32,000 bases of DNA from Nostoc punctiforme PCC 73102 (GTDB lineage Bacteria > Cyanobacteriota > Cyanobacteriia > Cyanobacteriales > Nostocaceae), in NCBI RefSeq assembly GCF_000020025.1, contig NC_010628.1:5010001-5042000 (forward strand), read 5' to 3'. Under the pieces are notes generated by a model. The model was not told the DNA's origin and ran no database searches. It saw only the letters and a program-made list of their open reading frames with translations. Made by a program: the position numbers and the translations under genes. This document shows, in pieces, positions 190-31,370 of this stretch (position 1 is the first letter of the stretch; each line of letters starts with the position of its first letter).

Positions 190-1257
190 GTGAGTAGTGA
201 GGGAAGAAGTGGGGATAATTTTCTGCGTCCGTATATTATCCTGTCATTTATGGCAGCTGTTGCCCTTCCAGTGACTATCTGGCAAGGGTTTTACATTCAT
301 CAAGCTCATGCTGCTGTTGAAGTAACACCAAACTCCCCAACTACTAACAGCTTTGCTAATGCCCAACTACTTTACACACTCAGAGGACATAACGGAACTG
401 TTAAATCTCTCGCTTTCAGTCCAGATAGCAGAATTCTTGCGAGTGGAGGTGCAGAAAATGAGGGTATTATTCGCCTGTGGAATCCAGCAAATGGCAAAAA
501 GTTGGCGGATATTAACAAAGCACACAAAGCAGCCGTAGAGTCTTTAGTAATTTCACCAGATGGGCAAACCCTTGCTAGTTGTAGTGATGACAACACGATT
601 AACCTCTGGAACCTGAAAAATTTTAAGTTTAGCCGCTCTTTTGTCGGACATACCAGTAACGTATTATCTTTAGCGGTGTCTCCTGATAGTAAAGTTCTCA
701 TCAGTGGGGCTTTGGATGGAATTCGGCTATGGGATTTACTACAGCAGCGCCCTTTAGGGACTCTAGTACGCTTCGATAACTTGATTTATACTCTAGCCAT
801 TAGCCCTGATGGACAGACCTTGGCTAGTGGTGATAGTAAGGGTGTAATCAAGGTATGGAGCTTGAGTACTGGTAAATTAATCAGTGAATTTGTCGCTCAT
901 TCTAATGTTGTTAGCGCTGTCATCTTTACACCAGATGGACAAACATTAGTGAGTGCTAGCCGCGATCGCACAGTCAAACTGTGGAATATTAATACTGGAG
1001 AATTAGTCCGCACCCTCACAGGACATAATAACTGGGTAAATGCGATCGCTATTAACCCCGATGGACAAACCCTTGCTAGTGCCGGCAAAGATGGGATTAA
1101 AGTGTGGAATTTAACTACAGGTGAGTTAATCAATACACTGAATGGACATACAGACTGGGTAAGTGCGATCGCTTTTAGTCCCAATGGTAAAATTCTTGCC
1201 AGTGGCGGATTTGATCGACAAATCAAGATTTGGGGAACTCCACAAAAACGTAATTAA
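190..1257 (+). CDS. Membrane-anchored WD40-repeat protein
   Basis: 355-aa ORF. GTG start is preceded by GAGGA at 178-182. An N-terminal hydrophobic segment (ILSFMAAVALPVTIW) is followed by seven units with the recurring pattern GH..V.S[LA]A.SPDGQTLAS....D.T[IV]K[LV]WN. Confidence 0.9.
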   Translation: MSSEGRSGDNFLRPYIILSFMAAVALPVTIWQGFYIHQAHAAVEVTPNSPTTNSFANAQLLYTLRGHNGTVKSLAFSPDSRILASGGAENEGIIRLWNPANGKKLADINKAHKAAVESLVISPDGQTLASCSDDNTINLWNLKNFKFSRSFVGHTSNVLSLAVSPDSKVLISGALDGIRLWDLLQQRPLGTLVRFDNLIYTLAISPDGQTLASGDSKGVIKVWSLSTGKLISEFVAHSNVVSAVIFTPDGQTLVSASRDRTVKLWNINTGELVRTLTGHNNWVNAIAINPDGQTLASAGKDGIKVWNLTTGELINTLNGHTDWVSAIAFSPNGKILASGGFDRQIKIWGTPQKRN

Positions 1258-1995: not shown

Positions 1996-3051
1996 ATGAA
2001 TCAACTGAACAATGGTTTTACGATATTTCTAAGTCTGCTAGTCGAGGCGATGCCTTTTTTGCTTCTTGGGGTTTTATTCTCCAGTTTGCTGCTATTTTTT
2101 GTTGATGAGCGCAAATTAGTAGAAAAAATGCCCAAAAATCCGCTGCTGGGTGCTTTAGTTGGCAGCTTGATCGGCTTTTTATTTCCGGTGTGTGAGTGCG
2201 GGAATGTGCCAGTAGCGCGGCGATTCCTGATTCAGGGAGTACCCACACCAGTCGCCATTGGTTTTTTGCTAGCAGCGCCAACAATTAACCCAATTGTAAT
2301 TTGGTCAACTTGGACAGCATTTCGAGATCAGCCAGAAATAGTGGTTTTACGAGTCGTATTTTCTCTAGCAATTGCCACAATTATTGGTTTTGTTTTCAGT
2401 TTTCAAAAGGACTTAAATCCGATAATTCAACCTGCGATCGCTCGGTATATGAAGTTTAATCCACCCGCGCAGCCGGAAACCAAACGCCGTGGTAAACGTT
2501 ACCAAGTAGAACAGCAAGAAGCGATACCAAATATCTTGCAATCCGGGACTTATATTTTAGGAGGAAAAGCAGGTGTACCTCTGCGGATTGATGCTAATTT
2601 TGTACAGCCGACTGCCCCAATTTCTAACACCAATAAACCTCTTGCAGATAAACTGCGCCTAGTGGTAGATAATAGCGTCCAAGAATTCCGGGAATTGGGC
2701 GGAGTGATGATTTTAGGAAGTGCGATCGCAGCAGCGATTCAAGTCTTAGCTCCCCGTGAATTAATTCTCAGTTTGGGTGCTGGGCCTATTAGCTCGATTG
2801 TAGTCATGCTGATATTAGCAGTAGTGGTGTCAATTTGTTCTACAGTCGATTCTTTTTTTGCTCTATCTTTTGCCTCGACCTTTAGTAGCGGTTCCTTGTT
2901 GGCATTTCTAGTGTTTGGGCCAATGATTGACATCAAAAGCGTTGGTTTGATGTTATCTATTTTTAAGCCCAAAACTGTGTTTTATTTATTTGCTTTAGCA
3001 GCACAATTGACATTTGTGTTAACTCTTTTCCTCAATTTGCACGTTTTTTAA
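1996..3051 (+). CDS. COG0701/DUF318 family permease (ArsP-like predicted permease)
   Basis: Polytopic membrane ORF with the Cys motif FPVCECGNVP typical of this permease family. The ORF opens at TTG 1981, but ATG 1996 (MNQLNNGF...) is the more plausible start. It is followed 53 nt later by its usual TIGR03943 partner. Confidence 0.85.
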   Translation: MNQLNNGFTIFLSLLVEAMPFLLLGVLFSSLLLFFVDERKLVEKMPKNPLLGALVGSLIGFLFPVCECGNVPVARRFLIQGVPTPVAIGFLLAAPTINPIVIWSTWTAFRDQPEIVVLRVVFSLAIATIIGFVFSFQKDLNPIIQPAIARYMKFNPPAQPETKRRGKRYQVEQQEAIPNILQSGTYILGGKAGVPLRIDANFVQPTAPISNTNKPLADKLRLVVDNSVQEFRELGGVMILGSAIAAAIQVLAPRELILSLGAGPISSIVVMLILAVVVSICSTVDSFFALSFASTFSSGSLLAFLVFGPMIDIKSVGLMLSIFKPKTVFYLFALAAQLTFVLTLFLNLHVF

Positions 3052-7835: not shown

Positions 7836-7865
7836 AAATAGGTATTTTTCTAGAGAACTGATAGT

Positions 7866-7900
7866 GGGAATTGGGAATTGGAAATTGGAAATTGGGCATG
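7866..7900. repeat. Tandem heptamer array (GGGAATT/GGAAATT)
   Basis: gggaatt|gggaatt|ggaaatt|ggaaatt|gggcatg, directly upstream of the TauE start. Confidence 0.8.
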
Positions 7901-8014
7901 ATGATTCTTCTTGTCCCCTTATCCCCCTTATCTCCCCCTGCTTCCCCCGCCCCTCTGCTCCCGTTCGGCTACGCTCACGGCAAGCCTGCTCCCTGCTCCT
8001 TCTCCCTCATCCCC
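7901..8014 (-). repeat. G-tract hairpin element, copy a (G-rich on minus strand), with nested mini-insert at 7963-7985
   Basis: Minus-strand reading: ggggatgagggagaaggagcagggagcagg[cttgccgtgagcgtagccgaac]gggagcagaggggcgggggaagcagggggagataagggggataaggggacaagaagaatcat. It shares a 22-nt identical core (7926-7947) with copy b (9364-9385) in inverted orientation. It contains the stop codon of the sulfite-oxidase-like gene. Confidence 0.75.
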
Positions 8015-9293
8015 GTACTGTCACCGGATGGCTAACAATGCCTCCGTAGAGCAATCCAAAATCATTCCACGGAACCGTATTAGGTTGTGTGTTACCTAAA
8101 TTGTCAGTAGCACGAGCTTGGAGAAAATATTCGCCAGGAACTGGGTTCCATTCAATGTCCCATCGTGTCCATGCAAATGGAAAGTTTGGTTCTCTCAGTC
8201 GTGCAAGCTGCCAAGTTTTACCGCCATCTAGACTGACTTCTACACGGGCAATTTTTCCTTTCCCAGACCAAGAACGTCCACGTAGTAAATGGGTTCGAGC
8301 CGAAAGCGTAGCGGGCCAAGCCAACTCGAAAGCGCTTTTAACATTTTGATAGGTAATCAGCTTACCTTTATATGGTGCGATCGCAGGGTAATCTGCACCA
8401 ACCAGTACCATCTGCTCCGTTACCCACTGGGTATATATCGGTGTTTCAGAAACCTCAATCCGCTCAATCCATTTAACGTTGGCGTTTCCTCCCCAACCAG
8501 GGAATAAGACACGGCATGGCTGGCCATGATCTGGAGGTAATGGTTCTCCATTCATTGCATAGACGACGAGCGAGTTATCTGCTAATGCTTTGCTAATTGG
8601 AACTACACTGCTGAATTTAGATTTATTTGTCCCTTTTGAGTCCAACGAATCCACATCTGCACCCTCAACAAGTACATCTTTTGCTGTAGATTTCAATCCA
8701 GCCCGCTCTAATAATATGCTCAGTGGTACACCAGTCCACTCAGCCACACCAATGGCCCCAAGCCTCCATCGGGTTCCAGAGAGTGGTGTGTTGTAAGCCT
8801 CTTCAAAGAAACGCCGACCATTAGCAGCACACTCAATGGCACATGTTACTGAGATGGAAGGCATAGTGATGATTTCATCGTAAGTGAACTCGCAAGGGAC
8901 AGAAACGCCAGTTCCATGAATTTGCAAACGCCATATAGATGGGTCAAAGGGAGGAGGTGTACTGCGGTTGTGAACATAAAACCAATCGTTTGGTACTAAA
9001 TAACCACGCTCATACATCGCTTCCCAGTTCATCTCTAACGTGCCTTTGCTATGGGAGATATACCCTGGTGGTAATGGTTTAAGTATTTTACTGCCCTTAG
9101 TTTTAACAGCTGCCTGACTGTGAGCAGGCGCAGGTTTAGCTAAACCCCCGATGGCTGTTGCGCCAACCATCGTGGCTAGTATTTTCAGAAAGCGCTGGCG
9201 CGAAATACCTGCATCTGTGCTTTTTTGCCAGATGCACTCATCAACCCGTGCCTGTAGATAATCCTCTTGGTCAAAGAGGTTCTCATCGCTCAA
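8007..9293 (-). CDS. Sulfite oxidase family molybdopterin oxidoreductase (SorA-like), Tat-exported
   Basis: Tat-like signal SRQRFLKILATMVGATAIGGLAKPAPAHS. Mo-ligand cysteine context AIECAANGRRFF. C-terminal Ig-like Mo-co dimerisation domain (ARVEVSLDGGKTWQLARL). The ORF is open up to 9482, but that extension is translated repeat DNA. TTG at 9293 is preceded by AAGGGGG, 6 nt upstream, and is the likely start. Confidence 0.85.
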   Translation of the reverse strand: MSDENLFDQEDYLQARVDECIWQKSTDAGISRQRFLKILATMVGATAIGGLAKPAPAHSQAAVKTKGSKILKPLPPGYISHSKGTLEMNWEAMYERGYLVPNDWFYVHNRSTPPPFDPSIWRLQIHGTGVSVPCEFTYDEIITMPSISVTCAIECAANGRRFFEEAYNTPLSGTRWRLGAIGVAEWTGVPLSILLERAGLKSTAKDVLVEGADVDSLDSKGTNKSKFSSVVPISKALADNSLVVYAMNGEPLPPDHGQPCRVLFPGWGGNANVKWIERIEVSETPIYTQWVTEQMVLVGADYPAIAPYKGKLITYQNVKSAFELAWPATLSARTHLLRGRSWSGKGKIARVEVSLDGGKTWQLARLREPNFPFAWTRWDIEWNPVPGEYFLQARATDNLGNTQPNTVPWNDFGLLYGGIVSHPVTVRG

Positions 9294-9306
9294 GCTATAC
9301 CCCCTT

Positions 9307-9334
9307 GTAATTCGTAATGCGTAATTCGTAATTA
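9307..9334. repeat. Tandem heptamer array (GTAATTC-type)
   Basis: gtaattc|gtaatgc|gtaattc|gtaatta. Confidence 0.8.
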
Positions 9335-9340
9335 AGGCAC

Positions 9341-9458
9341 AGAGATGAAGGAGCAGAAGGGCAGGGGAAGCAGGGGGAGATAAGGAAGACAAGGAGGAAT
9401 TATTGAATAAGTCTCTCTCTTGTCTCCCCCCTCTTCCTTGTCTCCCTTGTCTCTTCTT
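9341..9458 (+). repeat. G-tract hairpin element, copy b (G-rich half, AT loop, C-rich half)
   Basis: agagatgaaggagcagaagggcaggggaagcagggggagataaggaagacaaggagg - aattattgaataagt - ctctctcttgtctcccccctcttccttgtctccc... 9375-9389 can pair with 9432-9446 (15 bp, one G:U). Confidence 0.75.
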
Positions 9459-9486
9459 CATGCCCCATACCCCATGCCCCATGCGC
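9459..9486. repeat. Tandem heptamer array (CATGCCC-type)
   Basis: catgccc|cataccc|catgccc|catgcgc. Confidence 0.8.
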
Positions 9487-11729: not shown

Positions 11730-11920
11730 ACGGGGACGAGCATCATAATGTTATAACGGCATCAGTCTAGATCCAAAATAGGGAACATCAATTGATGATT
11801 AATTGCTGGTGCCTAGAGAGAGTTAAACTTAGCTTCTAGAGCAAACCCTGATTAGACAAGGTTGATAAGCAATGCTAATGCCAGCACTGCTGATATTTTT
11901 AGGCAGGTGGGTCAAGAGTG

Positions 11921-13471
11921 ATGAATGAAGCTGACACCTCAAATAAGGGGGCTGTGATGGAATCCCTAAATTCTGCTAATTCGCCACAATCGGAGCAGGC
12001 GAGTTGTCCCTTTTACTCAGTTGTGCCTAATGACAATATGGCAGTTAAACAACTGCCACTCCTCATGCCGGCTGAAGATAGACAATTTTCAAAAGATACC
12101 ACCCAGCAGGACTGGGTTGCAGAGCCGGAAATCGGCAAGCAAGCACTTATTGATTCAGAATTTCAGAACCTGCTGGCATTGAACGAAGAATTGCGTGCAG
12201 CTAACAATAACTTGTATGAACAAGTAGAGCAGCTAAAAGACAACCTAGCTGAGTCTGAAAAGGTTTTGCAGTGGCAGAAAACGCGCTCTAGCGTTACTGA
12301 GTCGATGCTCAACCAACATACTCAGGAATTAGCTGCGGCTCAAGAACAGATAAAATCTTTATTTCAACAATTAGAAATTGCTGTACAAACTATTCAACGT
12401 CAGGAAATTTTCACTGATAGTTATAAAGCACAGCTACAAATTAGCCAGCAACGCCTTGCCCAGCTAGAGCGAGAATGTACGTTGTTACACACTAATAACA
12501 ACGAACAGTCTGAGCAGTTATTGCAGTCAGAAACTGTTTGTCGGGAGTTACGTACTAGGCTGATGCGACAACAACGTCAGACGCTGCAATTTAAAGCAGC
12601 TCTGGAAAAATGTTTAGATACATCGGTTCCTAGCTATGACTCTTTAGAAGATACTGCACAACACCCCAAAGACATAACTAGCGGACAAGGAAGATTTTCT
12701 AGAAAAGCTCGGTCTTTGTTTCCTAATGCCCAGCCAATTAAACCTTGGTCAGCAGAATCAGAATCATTGACTGAAAATGAAGATGATTCTTGGGGTGAAC
12801 CGTCAGCACCAATCCCATTCCAAAGAACTGAGCCGACTCCACCGCCATCATCTTCTTGGAACTGGTCAGTTAAAAAAAATACCCCAAAAGCAGCAGAACC
12901 TCCTGCTCCCTTTCCAAAAATTGACGATTCCCCAGATACACCTGAAGCTGTTTCAACTTCGGGCTCATCCAATTTAGATCAGCAATTAGATAGTCTCATC
13001 CAAATGTTTTTCACTTCCCAGCCTCCATCTACATCACCACCGCCTACTGCAAAAACAGATGTGGATGCTAATAATGCCCCTGTCTGGGAGACTTTGGCAA
13101 CAATTATAGAAGACGATGAAAAAGTAGAAAATCAACGGGAGAAGGAGTTGGAGGCAGAAATTAATCCCCCTGTAACTACCTCTACTTCTTGGACGACAGA
13201 TTCTGTACTTTCACCAGCCAATAACTTACTGCTGTCTTCTACCTCCTTCCACACTGAGCCGCCTATTGGAGAAGCTGAAGATTACTGGTCAGAAGTTTCT
13301 CAATTGTCACAGTTGGAATTGTCAGAAAATGATTTTTCCTCAGAGTCATTAGGTGATAACACCAATGACGGTAATTCACCTTCACCTGTGGTTTATCCCC
13401 AACGTCCACCCAAGGGGCGTAAGTCGTTGGCATCTGTGGAACTACCGAATTTTCGCCCCAAGAGTCAATAG
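11921..13471 (+). CDS. Hypothetical coiled-coil protein with Pro/Ser/Thr/Glu-rich disordered C-terminal half
   Basis: 516-aa ORF (GTG 11918 / ATG 11921). Residues ~75-230 are heptad-like and Q/E/L-rich (LLALNEELRAANNNLYEQVEQLKDNLAESEKVLQ...). The C-terminal half is low-complexity (PPPSSSW, PPSTSPPPT). No enzymatic motif is visible. Confidence 0.7.
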   Translation: MNEADTSNKGAVMESLNSANSPQSEQASCPFYSVVPNDNMAVKQLPLLMPAEDRQFSKDTTQQDWVAEPEIGKQALIDSEFQNLLALNEELRAANNNLYEQVEQLKDNLAESEKVLQWQKTRSSVTESMLNQHTQELAAAQEQIKSLFQQLEIAVQTIQRQEIFTDSYKAQLQISQQRLAQLERECTLLHTNNNEQSEQLLQSETVCRELRTRLMRQQRQTLQFKAALEKCLDTSVPSYDSLEDTAQHPKDITSGQGRFSRKARSLFPNAQPIKPWSAESESLTENEDDSWGEPSAPIPFQRTEPTPPPSSSWNWSVKKNTPKAAEPPAPFPKIDDSPDTPEAVSTSGSSNLDQQLDSLIQMFFTSQPPSTSPPPTAKTDVDANNAPVWETLATIIEDDEKVENQREKELEAEINPPVTTSTSWTTDSVLSPANNLLLSSTSFHTEPPIGEAEDYWSEVSQLSQLELSENDFSSESLGDNTNDGNSPSPVVYPQRPPKGRKSLASVELPNFRPKSQ

Positions 13472-13534
13472 TCATTTGTCAATAGTCATTTGTCATTTGT
13501 CTAAATACTAAGACCAATGACCAATGACTAATAC
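13464..13534. repeat. Two heptamer arrays in opposite orientation (GTCATTT x6, then GACCAAT x3)
   Basis: gtcaata|gtcattt|gtcaata|gtcattt|gtcattt|gtctaaa ... gaccaat|gaccaat|gactaat. The first array contains the TAG stop (13469-13471) of the coiled-coil gene. Confidence 0.8.
13484..13529 (+). terminator. Hairpin formed by the inverted heptamer arrays (candidate terminator)
   Basis: agtcatttgtcatttgtc (13484-13501) pairs with gaccaatgaccaatgact (13512-13529) at 16 of 18 positions, with a 10-nt loop. It starts 13 nt after the stop codon. Confidence 0.4.
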
Positions 13535-13624
13535 AACTCTTAGAGAGGCTGCGCCCTAGGCGTAGCTATGCCGCAGGCTTTACGACTACGCGGTAGTTGG
13601 GCGCAGTCGAAACTCACTACAAGT
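13535..13624. repeat. 90-bp dispersed-repeat insert separating heptamer arrays
   Basis: acaactcttagagaggctgcgccctaggcgtagctatgccgcaggctttacgactacgcggtagttgggcgcagtcgaaactcactacaagt. It shares its core with 1598-1614 and ends in ...tacaagt like the 3921-3942 insert. Confidence 0.6.
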
Positions 13625-13673
13625 GACCAATTACCAATAACCAATAACCAATAACCAATGACCAATGACTAAT
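13625..13673. repeat. Tandem heptamer array (NACCAAT x7)
   Basis: gaccaat|taccaat|aaccaat|aaccaat|aaccaat|gaccaat|gactaat. The last unit contains the stop codon (13669-13671) of the minus-strand oxidoreductase gene. Confidence 0.85.
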
Positions 13674-15840
13674 TGAGAATCCTTGCTTCTGACTTCGGGA
13701 TTACGGCTTCTGGGTTTGTCTTTGCTACTTGAGAGCGCGATCGCGGTTTGCCTGTGGCGATCGCATAATTAATCGCCAATAGCCACAGCCACAAGCCAGG
13801 ATTTCGGGGTTCTAACCAAAAACCTACCCGGTTTAAGAAGCGCCCAAACCAGGGGCTTAGCAAAGCGCTAACGAGAGCATGACGACCGAAATTGAAATAA
13901 CTACCAAGCCATCGCATTAAATCTCTAGGCCCAGCTAGTTCCCAAATCCATAAAAGTAAGGCAGGATTTTTCCTAGCGGCTTTGAGTGCTAGGCGATTAA
14001 AGGTTAACCAATCACACCTATCTTTGATAAAGTTATCTGCTACTTCTTGGGGTTCATCTGCTAACAATCCAAAGAAGGTGTTGAGCATAGAGTTAATGCG
14101 CTGGGGTGGTAAGAATTTCCCAGTGGGTACCATCATGCCTTTGGAAAATAGCCAAGTCACGGAAACATTGCTTTGATAAGCTCGAATTTGGTTCAAGTGG
14201 CGGAAACTCAACAAGTCATGTTTGAGAGCAGTATCCAACAGTGTTGTTAAGCGCTCTAAGTTGCGAACTAGCGAACCAAAACCGGTGAAGACGAGGGGAG
14301 ATTGAAGTGATGCCGCATCACCGATCGCAATCAATCGATCGAAGGCAACTGTGCGATCGCTACTTCCTACACTAAAATGCCCTGGTATATACCCAAATGT
14401 CGGCTTCTTCCACACCAATTTGTCCATATCGCACCTGCGATACTCTGGCAAAATCGTGAAAAAGTCCTCGTACATCTCTAGCAAAGAACCAGGATTTTCA
14501 GCATTGACTTCATGGTAATGAAATAAATAAATCGTCAATTCATCATCTGCTGCGGGAAACAGTTCCCAAATTAACTGCCTTCCCCGCGAAATATCCCCAT
14601 GACTATAAAGAACGTCCCCGTATTGCGAATCCCATACTCCCGGCTCAAATCCGCTCTCAATTGCCGCACCTACTGTTGGGCATACGCTATCAAAGGCACG
14701 ACCACCATTTAACTGCCAAGCGATGGGTGAGGCAGTTCCCATTGCATCTATTAGCAGTCTTCCACTTACTTGTTTTTCAACCTGACTAGGTAAGTGCTTG
14801 ACTTGCAACAGAACTTGTGATATATCAATATCTGCACGCATAAATTCTGTTTCATCCCAGATTTCGCCGCCTGCCGCTTGCAGCTTTTGCCCACACATTT
14901 GGAGCCATTTTTCGGAATCTAAGCCTAAATTTAGGACTGTGGGTGTGTGCAGAACGGGCGATCGCAGTTTGGATGGATTGTTCGCATCAAAAAACTTATT
15001 GAATCCATCTTTGTATTCCCTAGCAATGATGGTTTCTAACTCAGCGGGGGTGACTAAACCCAGGTTAACCAAGCTTTGAATCTCATCGCGAGAAATATTC
15101 CATTCTCGGTTCATCCGGCCAAAGGGCATTCGTTCCACCAGCAGGACTTTATATCCTAGTTTTGCCATCAATGCTGCATGAATCGCGCCTAGTGCGCCGC
15201 CGATATAAATCAGGTCGTAAGTAGGGGATGAGGAGGATGATGAAGATATTATTTTTCCATCTCTCCCTGCTCCCCTGCTCCCCTGCTCCCCTGCTCCCCT
15301 GCTCCCCTGTCCCCTGTCCCCTCGACTGGAAAACACAACTTGACGCGGCTGCTGCGGATTTCGTACTCCTTCGCGCCACCGTTGTTCCCACCAGTAGGCA
15401 CGTGTTAGATCGTATTCACCGTTGGGCATTTTCTGAAAATACTTGACGGTGAGGGGGTAAGCAGAGGCTAAAGCGGCAAAAATCGATTGTTGGGATAAAT
15501 CAATCGGTGGTGGTTCCGGGTAATGATGCGGAAAACGGCTTCTAATTTCTTTGGTTAGGCGTTGCAGAATTTGTCCCTCACAGGGAAAGGGTTGTTCTGC
15601 CCAACGAAACACTTTCAGATAGGTAGTTCGTTGCACTGACCAAACAAATACCGAAAGTTCTACAGGCAAGTTTTCGGAAAGAGCCGCCCCAGCAGGTGTC
15701 TTAGCACTGGGTATTTTGAGGCGAAAGCCTTCCAAAGTAAGCACTTTTTCTCCATTTCCAGGTTCAAAATCTGTTTGTAGCCAGCTACGCACAGTTTCTA
15801 TATCTGGAGTTGGAACTTCTAAATAAAGGATTTCTCTCAT
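13669..15840 (-). CDS. FAD-dependent oxidoreductase, CruA/CruP-like (putative lycopene cyclase family) with repeat-derived in-frame insert
   Basis: 723-aa ORF with the Rossmann dinucleotide-binding motif YDLIYIGGALGAIHAALMAKLGYKVLLVE. Size and architecture (N-terminal extra domain, flavoprotein core, hydrophobic C-terminus) resemble cyanobacterial CruA-type proteins. That family assignment is from memory, not from a search. Confidence 0.75.
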   Translation of the reverse strand: MREILYLEVPTPDIETVRSWLQTDFEPGNGEKVLTLEGFRLKIPSAKTPAGAALSENLPVELSVFVWSVQRTTYLKVFRWAEQPFPCEGQILQRLTKEIRSRFPHHYPEPPPIDLSQQSIFAALASAYPLTVKYFQKMPNGEYDLTRAYWWEQRWREGVRNPQQPRQVVFSSRGDRGQGSRGAGEQGSRGAGRDGKIISSSSSSSPTYDLIYIGGALGAIHAALMAKLGYKVLLVERMPFGRMNREWNISRDEIQSLVNLGLVTPAELETIIAREYKDGFNKFFDANNPSKLRSPVLHTPTVLNLGLDSEKWLQMCGQKLQAAGGEIWDETEFMRADIDISQVLLQVKHLPSQVEKQVSGRLLIDAMGTASPIAWQLNGGRAFDSVCPTVGAAIESGFEPGVWDSQYGDVLYSHGDISRGRQLIWELFPAADDELTIYLFHYHEVNAENPGSLLEMYEDFFTILPEYRRCDMDKLVWKKPTFGYIPGHFSVGSSDRTVAFDRLIAIGDAASLQSPLVFTGFGSLVRNLERLTTLLDTALKHDLLSFRHLNQIRAYQSNVSVTWLFSKGMMVPTGKFLPPQRINSMLNTFFGLLADEPQEVADNFIKDRCDWLTFNRLALKAARKNPALLLWIWELAGPRDLMRWLGSYFNFGRHALVSALLSPWFGRFLNRVGFWLEPRNPGLWLWLLAINYAIATGKPRSRSQVAKTNPEAVIPKSEARILN
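15224..15322 (-). repeat. G-tract hairpin element, copy d, inside the CDS and in frame
   Basis: Sense strand: ggggaca x2, ggggagca x4, gggagagatggaaaaataatatcttcatcatcctcctcatcccc. It is translated as RGDRGQGSRGAGEQGSRGAGRDGKIISSSSSSSP, immediately before the FAD-binding fold. Confidence 0.8.
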
Positions 15841-21754: not shown

Positions 21755-21797
21755 AATTAATTCACTGTGTAACTGCAAGCCACACAGTGAATTAATT
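21755..21797. terminator. Bidirectional stem-loop between convergent hicB and murD
   Basis: Perfect 16-bp stem aattaattcactgtgt (21755-21770) / acacagtgaattaatt (21782-21797) with an 11-nt loop. The right arm abuts the murD stop codon. Confidence 0.5.
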
Positions 21798-23295
21798 ATA
21801 GAGAAGATGAAAGCATCAAGTTGTGTTGAAGCTTTCCTCCTGCCGCCCAAGCAAGGCACAACTCACGAAAACGATCGCCGCGCACCTCAAAATTTGGGTA
21901 CTGATCGAAACTCGCACAGGCTGGAGATAGCAACACCACAGGCGCTTGATACTCCTTGGCTAATTCCGCCGATCTGGGAACTGCCCTTTCCATAGTTTCC
22001 ACAATTTCGTAAGAATAATACCCCACTTCTTGCAGGCGTTGAGCAAATGCGGGTGCAGCAGAGCCAATCAATAATACAGCAGCAGCTTTGGTTTGGATTT
22101 GTGCTAGCCAGCCAGTATCATCTCCTGCTTTGGCTTCTCCACCAGCAATTAAAATCGCTGGACTTTTCACAGATGCTAAACCAACTTCGGCCGCATCGTA
22201 GTTGGTGGCTTTGCTGTCGTTGATGAAATCAATACCTTCCCAAGTGCAGATATGCTCCAAACGATGAGGAACGCCGGGGAATTCCTGAATCGCACGTGCG
22301 ATCGCATCACGATTAATTCCCGCTAATCGTGCCGTTGCTACTGCCATCAAGAGATTTTGCTGATTATGTTCTCCCACCATCCGCAAAGTAGATACTTTCA
22401 CAATCGGTTCTGGTGCTGAGGTTGCAGTCAATTTTTCCACAACCCAGCCGTTCTCGATGTAAAAGCCTTTTTCGCTAATCAGGAAATCTTTTCCTTTGAC
22501 ACTTGTCCAATAGGCATTAGGCCAAGCACTTAAACCTAACTGGCTCAAATAGGCATCATCGCCATTGAACACTTGCAACTCTGACTGACGCAACAGCTTT
22601 GCTTTGATGTTGTAATAGTTCTCTAAAGTCTTATGCCGACTCAGATGATCCGGTGTAAAAGTCGTCCAAACACCGATACGGGGTGCAAGAGAACTGGAAG
22701 ATTCTATTTGATAGCTGCTAACCTCCGCAATCACCCAATCGAGCGAGGGGGATGAGGAAGAATTTACTTCCCTATCTCCCCCTGCTCCCTGCTCCCTGCC
22801 CCCTGCCCCTCTCCCGCTCCAAGAAAGGGCAACTTCACAAGCGGCGTAGCCAATGTTACCGCAGGCGGGCGCGTCTAATTCTGCTGCTTGAAAAATGGCA
22901 GCAATTAAAGCTGTGGTAGTAGTTTTACCGTTAGTACCTGTAATTCCTACCCAAGGTAGCGATGCCTGCGGCTGGCTGCGCCAACGCAAATTTCGCCAAG
23001 CGAGTTCCATTTCCCCAATGGTTTCAATACCTAATTGGCGTGCCTTGATTAATACGGGAATATCCCAAGGCACGCCAGGACTAACAACTATTAATTGGGG
23101 TAAATTATCACCATTTAATTCTAGGGATTGGCCTAGTTTAACGGTTATTTGCTCGGCAGCGAGTTCTTGTTGTTGTTGTAGGAGGGTTTTGGAGGTGTTG
23201 CCATCACTCAGCTCTACCTCCCAACCTTCCCGTTTCAACAATCTCGCCGCAGCAACACCGGACTTTCCCAATCCAATAACATGAGCTTTGGACAT
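21796..23295 (-). CDS. murD: UDP-N-acetylmuramoyl-L-alanine--D-glutamate ligase
   Basis: N-terminal [17 protein letters not shown]-loop [16 protein letters not shown] and EVSSYQIE blocks, and C-terminal domain RLE...[12 protein letters not shown] 23295 is preferred over TTG 23304. Confidence 0.95.
22747..22818 (-). repeat. G-tract hairpin element, copy e, inside murD and in frame
   Basis: Sense strand: agcgggagaggggcagggggcagggagcagggagcagggggagatagggaagtaaattcttcctcatcccc. It is translated as [24 protein letters not shown], between the GNIG block and the SSYQIE strand. Confidence 0.8.
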
Positions 23296-23380
23296 AGATT
23301 GCAAGCAGAGTGTCCCTGGTTAAGCACTCCCTATAGTAGCGTCTATTGGCAAAAATTACACAACTTTTTGTTGACTTACG

Positions 23381-29599: not shown

Positions 29600-31225
29600 A
29601 TGTCCCATTCTGAGTTCCCTGATTCTCCCCTTCCAGTTGAAATAGAACAGCCTGCTGTTATTGATTCTAGTCAACAGCCACAACCACTGCCAGAGCGATC
29701 GCCTAAACCACCTCAAAAGCGTCGTTGGCCTCTAATTTTGGGAATTATCCTCTTAATTGGAGGCATTGGTTTTGGTTGGCGCTGGTGGCAAACTAGTAGT
29801 GCTAGCAATCCACCAGCAGGTGGGCCAGCTGCTGGTCAACCGATGGCAATTCCAGTCAAGCTAGCGACTGTTCAACCTGAAACTGTGCAAGAGAGTTCGG
29901 AGTTTATTGGCTCCTTAGAGGCTCCACGTTCGGTAATTATCAAGCCACAGGTTGAGGGACGAGTTACCCAAATTTATATCAAAGAGGGCAACCGTGTTCA
30001 ACAAGGGCAAGTTATTATTAGCCTAGAAAGTGATAGTGTCCAAGCGCAATTATTACAAGCAAAAGCTGCACTAGCACAAGCTCAAGCACGTCTTGCTGAA
30101 CTCAAAGCAGGTACGCGACAAGAAGAAGTTGCCCAAGCTAGAGCGCAGTTAACCCAAGCCCAAGCTCGCTTGCGAGATGCTCAATCGGGGTCGCAACCAC
30201 AAGAAATTGCTCAAGCTGAGGCTCAAATTCAGTCAGCTAAATCAGATGTAGAACTAGCACAGTCACGAGCCAAGCGATACGCACAATTGAGAAAAGAGGG
30301 CGCAGTTTCTCAAGATACCTTAGAAGGATATGTCAAAGAACAGCAAAGTGCTGAAGCTGCACTGGTTGTAGCCCAGAAACGCCTAGCTCAACTCCGCCAA
30401 AGCAGAACTTCTAGTGTCAATGAGCTGGCTGGAGCCTTGGAACAACAGAAACAAAACTTAAGGCAACTAGAAAATGGTTCCCGCCCAGAAGAAATTGCCC
30501 AAGCGCGATCGCAAGTAACTCAAGCAGCAGCCCAAGTCCAAGCAGCCCAAGTTCAACTGCAATACACAAAAGTTCTGGCACCTTTTACTGGTACTGTTGG
30601 CGATATTCCCACAAAAGTGGGAGATTATGTAGAAAAAGCAGATCAACTCACTACACTTACTAGAAACGATTCTTTAGAACTAAATATTTCCGTTCCCCTA
30701 GAAGAAGCCAAAAAGCTGCGCTTGGGATTACTAGTGCAAATGCTGAACATCCAAGGTCAACCTACAGCAACGGGTAAGATAAGTTTCATCTCTCCAGATG
30801 CTAGTTCAGATTCGCAGACAATTTTGGTTAAAGCTAATTTTGGTAATTCTAGAAGTCAACTGGTAAATCGCCAATCAGTGCAAACCAAAGTGATCTGGAA
30901 CGAACGTCCAGGAATATTAATTCCAGTTACAGCAGTATCTCGCCTGGGTGGGGAGACCTTTGTATTTGTAGCTGAAGCGCCAACAGAAAAGAAAGCTGAA
31001 CCAACAGAAAAAAAAGCTGAAGCGCCAGCAGAAAAGAAAGCTGGAGCGCCATCTTTAGTTGCTCAACAAAAACCTGTGAAATTGGGAGTTATTGAGGGGA
31101 ATAATTATCAAGTTATCGAAGGACTAAAAGCTGGAGACAAAATTGTTGTTTCCGGTATTCTCAACCTAACTAATGGCGCTCCCATCACTCCCGCACCGCA
31201 AGAAGTGGGTAGTCAGAAGCCATAG
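29600..31225 (+). CDS. RND efflux transporter periplasmic adaptor (MFP/HlyD family)
   Basis: Pro-rich N-terminus, then a TM anchor (WPLILGIILLIGGIGFGW). A lipoyl-like half-motif (GRVTQIYIKEGNRVQQGQVIISLE) is followed by a long coiled-coil hairpin with repeated EE[IV]AQA.AQ motifs, then beta-barrel and MP domains. Confidence 0.9.
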   Translation: MSHSEFPDSPLPVEIEQPAVIDSSQQPQPLPERSPKPPQKRRWPLILGIILLIGGIGFGWRWWQTSSASNPPAGGPAAGQPMAIPVKLATVQPETVQESSEFIGSLEAPRSVIIKPQVEGRVTQIYIKEGNRVQQGQVIISLESDSVQAQLLQAKAALAQAQARLAELKAGTRQEEVAQARAQLTQAQARLRDAQSGSQPQEIAQAEAQIQSAKSDVELAQSRAKRYAQLRKEGAVSQDTLEGYVKEQQSAEAALVVAQKRLAQLRQSRTSSVNELAGALEQQKQNLRQLENGSRPEEIAQARSQVTQAAAQVQAAQVQLQYTKVLAPFTGTVGDIPTKVGDYVEKADQLTTLTRNDSLELNISVPLEEAKKLRLGLLVQMLNIQGQPTATGKISFISPDASSDSQTILVKANFGNSRSQLVNRQSVQTKVIWNERPGILIPVTAVSRLGGETFVFVAEAPTEKKAEPTEKKAEAPAEKKAGAPSLVAQQKPVKLGVIEGNNYQVIEGLKAGDKIVVSGILNLTNGAPITPAPQEVGSQKP

Positions 31226-31286
31226 GGAAGGGCAAGGGGGCAGGGGAGCAGGGGGGCAGGGAAAGATAAGGGAAGAAGAAGAATAA
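31226..31286 (+). repeat. G-tract element, copy f, in the adaptor-pump intercistronic spacer
   Basis: gggaagggcaagggggcaggggagcaggggggcagggaaagataagggaagaagaagaataa starts directly after the TAG stop (31223-31225). Confidence 0.75.
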
Positions 31287-31370
31287 CTATGCCCAATGCC
31301 CCATTCCCCATGCCCAATTCCCCATGCCCAATGCCCCAATACCTAATGCCAAATACCCAAAGCCCAATTT
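31287..31370. repeat. Tandem heptamer array, 12 units (CCATGCC/CAATGCC-type)
   Basis: ctatgcc|caatgcc|ccattcc|ccatgcc|caattcc|ccatgcc|caatgcc|ccaatac|ctaatgc|caaatac|ccaaagc|ccaattt. Confidence 0.85.

Follow-up and report, generated by a model that had tools for sequence, protein, structure and literature searches.

How does a tandem-repeat element built of units of seven and eight nucleotides come to lie in frame within a conserved enzyme gene, and is it tolerated there or put to use? The question is raised by a stretch of 32,000 nucleotides of Nostoc punctiforme PCC 73102 (contig NC_010628.1, forward-strand positions 5,010,001 to 5,042,000; hereafter the window, whose numbering is used throughout), in which a cruA-like gene carries such an element at 15224..15322, with the minus strand as sense. 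The reading that we favor, at a probability of roughly 0.7, is that of a tolerated repeat element that evolves by slippage in a disordered, permissive linker and from which selection removes the frame-breaking alleles.

The repeat element of cruA and its host protein

In sense order, the element consists of (GGGGACA)2(GGGGAGCA)5, GGGAGAGATGG, an A/T spacer of 11 nt and CTTCATCATCCTCCTCATCCCC. The host gene and the parts of the element are as follows.

13669..15840, minus strand: cruA-like host gene, an open reading frame (ORF) of 723 aa
15308..15321, minus strand: pair of GGGGACA heptamers with which the G-rich arm opens on its 5' side, by direct reading, within the tandem array
15268..15307, minus strand: five perfect GGGGAGCA octamers, from matches of a 16-mer
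15257..15267, minus strand: core GGGAGAGATGG, the degenerate last G-tract units, from an alignment of four copies in the window
15246..15256, minus strand: A/T spacer AAAAATAATAT, loop of a weak hairpin, from direct reading and folding
15224..15245, minus strand: C/T-rich 3' arm CTTCATCATCCTCCTCATCCCC, translated as SSSSSSSP, the only match in the window

Tandem Repeats Finder reports an array of period 8 at 15265..15322 (7.5 copies, 98% matches, score 102). The 16-mer GGGGAGCAGGGGAGCA, which spans two octamers, has four overlapping matches at 15268..15307 on the minus strand where none are expected (100 shuffles), and this makes the number of octamers five rather than the four of the original prediction. 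Five 8-mers are thus joined to two 7-mers, the latter having the unit length that serves as the criterion for the STRR (short tandemly repeated repetitive) class. The core GGGnGAGATrGG is common to the cruA copy, a copy in murD and both intergenic copies of the window, as seen in the four-copy alignment, and the C/T-rich 3' arm is weakly complementary to the G-rich arm.

Translated in frame, the element yields RGDRGQGSRGAGEQGSRGAGRDGKIISSSSSSSP inside the product of the 723-aa ORF, including the peptides IISSSSSSSPTYDLIYIGGALGAIHAALMAK and GAGEQGSR; the ORF translation contains exactly the peptide that had been claimed. The octamers encode the cyclic peptide GEQGSRGA in every sense frame and CSPAPLLP in antisense, and a TAA within the A/T spacer closes one of the three sense frames. 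Since the cyclic peptide of a 7- or 8-nt unit does not depend on which of the three frames is read, the preserved frame reflects a requirement on total length only, and as a signal of selection, which is how the original prediction had taken it, it is weak by itself.

The best 120 homologs of the host protein are Nostocales proteins of 690-754 aa, all of them full length, and are named 'lycopene cyclase CruA' (JGI) or 'NAD(P)/FAD-dependent oxidoreductase' (NCBI). No Pfam-A family matches the protein at E <= 0.001, and the geranylgeranyl-reductase family TIGR02032 of NCBIfam gives a weak, sub-threshold match from residue 208; a GxGxxG-type motif, IYIGGALG, is present. We take the host to be a CruA-like oxidoreductase dependent on flavin adenine dinucleotide (FAD), with the CruA label derived from the database names and the motif. 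As an observation in its own right, a CruA-type protein of ~700 aa is without a Pfam-A model despite hundreds of cyanobacterial orthologs.

The protein appears to comprise an N-terminal domain (residues 1 to ~172), the repeat-encoded linker (~173-206) and the FAD fold from ~207. In a search of representatives at 50% identity, paralogs of ~40% identity align only from query residue ~204, and N-terminal fragments align to residues 1-175. An AlphaFold2 model based on 49 sequences (mean predicted local distance difference test score, pLDDT, 81.5; predicted template modeling score, pTM, 0.82) leaves residues 173-203 at pLDDT <50 and without secondary structure between confident flanking domains, and has the FAD fold begin with a strand at 208-213, directly after the linker. 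Because the start of the paralog alignment, the end of the N-terminal fragments and the low-pLDDT stretch coincide, the repeat is predicted to encode a disordered linker of ~34 aa that joins an N-terminal domain specific to cyanobacteria to the FAD-binding fold, and in the model the insert falls between two confident domains, that is, at a permissive site. For annotation and alignment, the 34 residues would not be counted as part of the CruA fold, and strain differences in length at the CruA linker would be read as repeat slippage, not as domain changes.

Judged from its relatives, the segment is an insert, since a CruA of 68% identity (P0121) has only REEEKTPHSLPS, a non-repetitive linker of 12 aa, between the QVVF and YDLIY anchors, where the window CruA has 37 aa (111 nt), and since the paralogs align from ~204. 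The comparison with orthologs bears out the insert status claimed before: the element lies inside a conserved ORF, keeps the frame and is missing from a more distant ortholog, and the murD copy behaves likewise.

Turnover and reading frame at the insertion sites

Each of the best 120 Nostocales orthologs carries a different repeat-derived segment between PRQVVFS and YD(L/I)IYIGG, for example GDWGLGTGDWGKGNPNTQSLIPNP, GSRGAGEQGSRGAGEQGSRGEVAGSLSPLPLCPSAPLPL and RRGDAENFLPASPRPPVPVSSSP. In some strains the peptides are repeat-derived and unrelated (GDWGLGTGDWG..NPNTQSLIPNP, RRGDAEN..PRPPVPV), and in another strain (locus L125; L and P numbers denote loci and proteins of the comparison sets) GGGGACT units fill the same site. 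The layout of the orthologous linker DNA is one of G-rich units, loop and C-rich units. Two strains with 97% protein identity differ from the window linker by 24 nt, exactly three octamers, and by 15 nt; in the strain of L001 three of the five GGGGAGCA octamers are missing. The expectation that unit copy number would differ between strains is thereby confirmed.

This variability bears on the idea that the peptide itself is a selected feature, with a Gly/Arg-rich and then Ser-rich stretch serving in an RG-type interaction, as a phosphorylation motif or as a linker that must have a certain length. The location in a linker, a composition that is always hydrophilic and predicted disordered, and the sense-only orientation of such repeats in coding sequence (see below) are compatible with it. 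However, sequence and length are hypervariable even between strains of 92-97% identity (690-754 aa for the protein), unrelated repeat-derived peptides replace the segment in some strains, and the same peptide occurs in >25 unrelated enzymes. The orthologs do not show the protein-level conservation that had been named as a sign against a repeat insertion, the linker being hypervariable among them and reduced to the 12 non-repetitive residues in the 68%-identical CruA. We hold a function of the peptide to be very doubtful.

On our favored reading, the tolerated element would be a copy, resident at this site, of a G-tract tandem repeat of the hairpin type that is dispersed in filamentous cyanobacteria; 7/8-nt units make up its G-rich 5' arm, and an A/T loop separates this from the C/T-rich 3' arm. 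It would have invaded the cruA linker before the sampled Nostocales diverged, and the site would have been a hot spot ever since. Replication slippage would change the array by whole units, arms would turn over and small elements would nest inside the array, and the only survivors would be alleles that have gained or lost a net multiple of three nucleotides, since the FAD domain downstream has to be produced. The host probably tolerates the element because the site is a flexible linker and because the Gly/Ser/Arg/Glu/Gln peptide given by the sense orientation is soluble and may well be neutral.

The reading frame is kept throughout the sample. The linker DNA has a length that is a multiple of three at eight cruA loci (42-138 nt) and in two metagenome copies (87 and 90 nt), that is, in 10/10 cases; a first metagenome scan with exact anchors gave no cruA linker copies. 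Out-of-frame alleles were looked for in these eight loci and two metagenome copies and none was found, in a sample that is small and, like the whole ortholog set, biased toward intact genes so that frameshifted alleles would be under-sampled.

An alternative frame is open across the repeat.

15149..15391, minus strand: alternative-frame ORF of 80 aa, crossing the repeat

It would yield the peptide WKNNIFIILLIPYLRPDLYR and stops 38 codons after the repeat. The original prediction had pointed to this ORF as a possible source of frameshift- or slippage-prone expression; the ORF exists, and the in-frame lengths of all ten linkers speak against such expression. Since the G-rich repeat is without stops, the ORF is best read as a by-product of stop-free repeat units, with no sign of use in the sequences compared. 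Seen as a contingency locus, cruA would alternate between full-length CruA and a truncated N-terminal product ending at 15149, whether by gaining or losing single units or by slippage of the ribosome or of transcription. In keeping with this, neither unit length, 7 or 8 nt, is divisible by three, copy number and tract length vary between strains, one alternative sense frame is open, and two gene calls are split at the linker (P0156, P0157). Against it, the best 120 orthologs are full length, close strains differ only by the frame-preserving steps of 24 and 15 nt, the alternative frame ends soon after the repeat, and the hosts are housekeeping enzymes (CruA, MurD, MutL, aspartokinase, PFOR), not surface, host-interaction or restriction-modification genes. 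A contingency locus is therefore very unlikely in our view.

The split calls, in which cruA falls into two or three ORFs, are at L130 (3060..3115, P0157) and L131 (2501..4822, P0156). The frameshift of L130 lies inside a linker of C-homopolymer runs (CCCCCACCCCCCTACCCCCCCACCCCCC) on a metagenome contig, and the assembly of L131 has several split genes, including the neighboring Rieske/VanA gene. Both are probably homopolymer or long-read sequencing errors and less probably real inactivated alleles. They show that such repeats are error-prone in some assemblies, from which one could argue that the window element too is an assembly or sequencing artifact of a low-complexity region; yet independent assemblies of related strains hold the same element with clean unit steps and intact frames, and the window murD protein is recorded on 91 contigs, one of them of 8.23 Mb. 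The probability of an artifact is close to nil.

The element has three relatives in the window.

~22747..22822, minus strand: sister copy in murD, inside ORF 21796..23304
7900..8016, minus strand: intergenic copy, overlapping the stop codon of the upstream gene 8007..9482
31225..31368, plus strand: intergenic copy whose start falls on the stop codon of gene 29600..31225

The host of the sister copy is identified as murD by TIGR01087 (ORF 21796..23304, minus strand, E = 8.6e-114). The murD and cruA copies align closely from the last octamers through core and loop to the TCTTC..CTCATCCCC arm, and agree in orientation and in their frame with respect to the ..GAGAT.. core; that both belong to one element subtype, as had been claimed, is thus upheld by the alignment. 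The murD copy encodes a segment of 25 residues and lengthens a central-domain loop by ~23 aa; when the protein is aligned to solved MurD structures, a gap opens at about query residues 160-188, where the best chain, 3lk7, has four residues. Among 110 Nostoc orthologs the site holds 13-53 aa of various repeat types and nested small elements, the latter giving the peptides FDNSCTDAINRVS, AALRLRSVTEG and PSCAGSAPKVRPKIQN. From these comparisons the cruA and murD sites appear to be old hot spots with fast turnover, not recent strain-private insertions. The notion of two recent independent insertions is not supported: both sites are occupied in every Nostoc ortholog examined, and turn over rapidly.

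A comparable observation was made at anmK, the gene of anhydro-N-acetylmuramic acid kinase. At L048 (~2032..2083, reverse-complement) the site has GGGAAAT/GGGGAAT heptamers and the peptide GKWEMGNGEWGMGNGEK, and at the same site of the ortholog L057 (647..671) there are GGGGAGCA octamers and the peptide GGAGEQGSRG; one unit type has thus taken the place of another at a single site, as in cruA and murD.

Orientation of the arrays and RNA structure

A scan for (GGGGAGCA)3 with one genome per species gave at least 120 loci; the counts that follow are for the matches listed. Most loci are from Nostocales and some from other filamentous cyanobacteria. Phormidium, Kastovskya, Floridaenema, Planktothrix, Spirulina and Chroococcidiopsis are represented and, outside the cyanobacteria, Caldilineaceae, Anaerolineales, Phycisphaerales and Acidobacteriota. 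Orientation was counted for cyanobacterial arrays at least 240 nt from the end of the locus, and arrays were scored as lying in an ORF where the frame is open for at least 80 codons on both sides. Among in-ORF arrays of three or more GGGGAGCA units, 32 have the G-rich strand as sense and one, in RecJ (L114), is antisense, with one ambiguous case; 61 arrays lie outside long ORFs. After de-duplication of orthologs, ~27 distinct host sites stand against one (two-sided binomial p ~2e-7). Solid Pfam domains were found in all 20 host ORFs checked, and about half of the arrays lie between Pfam domains. The hosts include a P-type ATPase, MutL, a PPDK-type enzyme, PFOR, ThiO-ThiG, aspartokinase and a CobN-type chelatase, and also nitrite/sulfite reductase, a RecJ-like DHH protein, AnmK, LdpA, glycogen debranching enzyme and a CLC channel.

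Several general causes of this bias could be discarded. Stop codons do not account for it, since intergenic copies have a mean of 1.64 stop-free frames in either orientation (1.64 vs 1.64). Transcription polarity as a general cause is ruled out by the arrays between co-directional genes, of which 16 are co-oriented and 16 anti-oriented. Nor is there a general bias of G-tracts, as non-seed G-tract arrays in ORFs are sense in 11 cases and antisense in 12; most of these antisense arrays are C-rich 3' arms with the G-rich arm just upstream in the same gene, and the bias therefore belongs to the GGGGAGCA arm or to the composite element. Because the ratio between genes is 16:16 and the numbers of stop-free frames are equal, the orientation bias is specific to coding sequence, and the constrained orientation inside genes on which the original prediction had rested its case for selection stands. 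With 32 of 33 in-gene GGGGAGCA arrays pointing one way among the matches listed, the bias bears the clear mark of selection acting on repeat DNA that is translated, and it counters the published generalization that G-rich repeats avoid the coding strand inside ORFs.

Two observations on arrays in other genomes stand beside this count. Arrays from Caldilineaceae, Anaerolineales, Chloroflexota, Promineifilum and Phycisphaerales (L028, L034, L056, L010, L014, L037, L102) sit within long open frames whose sense strand is the G-rich one, in what may be real genes or high-GC artifacts. In Planktothrix (L059; 3982..4062, and minus strand 552..710, reverse-complement), long in-ORF arrays of the 9-nt unit GGGGGAGCA occur in both orientations and encode (GGA)n/GAGGAGG in one gene and PPAPPAPP in another; for this unit, which is a multiple of three, the orientation constraint seems absent.

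The RNA was considered as a second level at which selection could act. The cruA sense strand has seven GGGG tracts with loops of 3-4 nt, followed by GGG, and when quadruplex energies are included, the ViennaRNA prediction for the sense RNA is a four-layer G-quadruplex, at -64.6 kcal/mol compared with -37.6 kcal/mol without it. The hairpin of the window linker is no better than those of shuffled sequences (z = 0.06 for the linker alone, -1.5 with flanks); the murD copy folds as a clean hairpin (z = -2.0), and orthologous cruA linkers range from z = -2.5 to -7.4. In L124, (GGGGAGCA)7 pairs with (CCCCTCTG)n (-88.3 kcal/mol, z = -3.9); in L125, GGGGACT pairs with AATCCC units (z = -2.5); and L127 has the palindrome GACGCGGAGA (z = -7.4), so that in these three orthologs both arms have changed unit type together. 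No G-quadruplex motif is present at the cruA site of L126 (linker of 42 nt) or L127 (GC palindrome). For a sense-specific RNA hairpin as the cause of the orientation bias, the sense and antisense energies give no consistent picture across copies: the fold is better on the sense strand for cruA, murD and L124, and on the antisense strand for the intergenic copy at 31225 (IG_31225), L125 and L127.

These data bear on a regulatory role of the mRNA, in which a G-quadruplex or hairpin slows ribosomes at the domain boundary and tunes expression or co-translational folding. The predicted quadruplex, a coding-specific bias that stop codons leave unexplained and the position of about half of the in-gene arrays between Pfam domains all point in this direction, as does the finding that stabilized coding-region quadruplexes lower translation in mycobacterial PE/PPE genes (PMC10801317). 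However, the structure is not conserved, as seen in L126 and L127, the window linker does not fold better than chance, a location between domains is equally expected from mere tolerance, and the quadruplex is a prediction. We consider such regulation of cruA unlikely. Quite unlikely, too, is its extension to the family as a whole, by which GGGGAGCA-type arrays are kept on the sense strand of >25 housekeeping genes as a translational pause or regulatory site at domain boundaries; if it were true, with a quadruplex or hairpin as the pause, Nostocales would be a bacterial lineage that uses coding-region RNA G-quadruplexes widely.

Several points weigh against the view of a tolerated, slippage-evolving insert. 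The in-gene orientation bias shows that some selection acts, on peptide or RNA. The composite peptides are similar both ways (GEQGSRGA and PLCPSAPL in one orientation, GAEGQRGR and CSPAPLLP in the other), so that an explanation purely at the level of the peptide is not obviously sufficient. The paired change of the arms in L124, L125 and L127 could mean that structure is maintained rather than neutral. The intact-gene bias of the ortholog set would favor in-frame alleles, and a tolerated spacer is the default reading, with function judged from sequence.

Known repeat systems and other arrays of the window

By architecture and distribution, the element belongs to the known class of STRR and G-quadruplex repeats. 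STRR heptanucleotide repeats of heterocyst-forming cyanobacteria were reportedly described by Mazel and colleagues in 1990 in J Bacteriol, and we take the units of STRR1-3 to be CCCCAGT, TTGGTCA and CAACAGT. Like the cruA element, they are short tandem units, dispersed in the genome and abundant in Nostocales, that lengthen a dispensable part of a functional gene; dispersal of the present element is seen in the four related copies of the window and in the loci found across genomes. In contrast to STRR, the units GGGGACA/GGGGAGCA match none of these heptamers, the main unit is an 8-mer joined to 7-mers, the host is protein-coding and the repeat is translated, and octamer arrays occur also in non-heterocystous cyanobacteria and in some non-cyanobacteria.

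Rickettsia palindromic elements (RPEs), said to have been found in frame in protein-coding genes by Ogata and colleagues (Science, 2000), resemble the Nostoc element as small palindromic or hairpin repeats that are translated in frame at tolerant sites of conserved genes. There is, however, no sequence relationship, RPEs measure ~100-150 bp and are not tandem arrays, and the Nostoc element, unlike an RPE, shows unit slippage and same-site turnover. Small dispersed repeats (SDRs) nested in tandem heptamers of Nostoc punctiforme were reportedly described by Elhai and colleagues (Genome Res, 2008), and heptanucleotide-repeat stem-loops in the Nostoc tRNA-Leu(UAA) intron are said to go back to Costa and colleagues (2002). 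The likeness to the window lies in the organism group, in small elements nested in arrays and in repeat arms that form the sides of helices; the cruA element, however, is a tandem array with a hairpin and not an SDR, and these reports are said to concern RNA genes and intergenic DNA.

STRR repeats are also placed inside the RNase P RNA gene (Vioque 1997, as cited in PMC7593598). Rehm et al. 2015 (PMC4692102) describe the GGGGA(C/T)T heptamer repeats of Nostoc PCC 7120, a genome of 41.3% G+C, which form G-quadruplexes in vitro and of which 32% are intragenic, together with the GGGAATC repeats of Xanthomonas. These repeats and the window element share G4N3-4 units in runs of at least four that are dispersed, lie in part within genes and, on the coding strand, are often close to a stop codon; the two intergenic copies of the window indeed begin at stop codons. 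The window element differs from the Rehm repeats in its units (GGGGACA/GGGGAGCA as opposed to GGGGA(C/T)T), in an 8-mer as main unit, in being a composite of G-arm, loop and C-arm, and in its restriction within genes almost to the coding strand (32:1 among the matches listed); in-frame hypervariable protein linkers, as seen for the cruA and murD elements, are not described in the sections of that paper considered.

In Mycobacterium tuberculosis, coding-region RNA G-quadruplexes were reported for PE/PPE (PGRS) genes, with an effect of a ligand on translation (Kumar et al. 2023, PMC10801317). There, as in cruA, sense-strand G-tract repeats encode a Gly-rich peptide of low complexity; the hosts here, by contrast, are housekeeping enzymes, the quadruplex is known from prediction, and the related PCC 7120 genome has the G+C content of 41.3% quoted above from Rehm et al. 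A general depletion of RNA G-quadruplexes in bacteria has been reported (Guo and Bartel 2016, as cited in PMC10801317).

Taken alone, the cruA element is one more copy of the well-known tandem-repeat load of Nostoc at a tolerant site. What goes beyond it is the wider pattern of old repeat hot spots, hypervariable and placed in linkers and loops, among the conserved enzymes of filamentous cyanobacteria, which may deserve a genome-wide study; within a literature coverage that is incomplete, no paper on in-frame repeat hot spots in Nostoc enzymes was found.

Besides the cruA element, Tandem Repeats Finder detects many heptamer arrays in the window. In both intergenic copies the G-rich strand is the sense strand of the upstream gene. 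The copy at 7900..8016 is followed by a C-rich heptamer array of CCCAATT type at 7865..7896, with the potential to pair with the G-arm, and the copy at 31225..31368 runs from G-tract octamers through GGGAAAGATAAGGG to an array of ATGCCCA heptamers that forms the C-rich arm.

Downstream of gene 8007..9482, the 22-nt sequence GTTCGGCTACGCTCACGGCAAG interrupts the C-rich tandem array at 7963..7984. Near-identical copies are found in two other Nostoc genomes (L122, minus strand, ~6612 in reverse-complement coordinates; L104, plus strand, ~5452), where they are likewise nested inside tandem arrays, and GTTCGGCTACGCTCACGGCAAG has the look of a small dispersed element with repeat arrays as its target. 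The same 491-aa ORF on the minus strand has at its 5' end (9300..9484) ~60 codons that consist of arrays of GTAATTC, TCTCCCTTG and CATGCCC, which translate to MGHGVWGMKKRQGRQGRGGRQERD..SSLSSLSPPASP; here either a repeat is once more translated, or the gene in truth starts further downstream. Finally, three heptamer arrays (GTCATTT, GACCAAT, ACCAATA) stand in a row at 13459..13674, where ORF 11918..13471 converges on the cruA stop; the unit of the GACCAAT array, at 13512..13532, presumably corresponds to the classic STRR2 unit, complemented and rotated.

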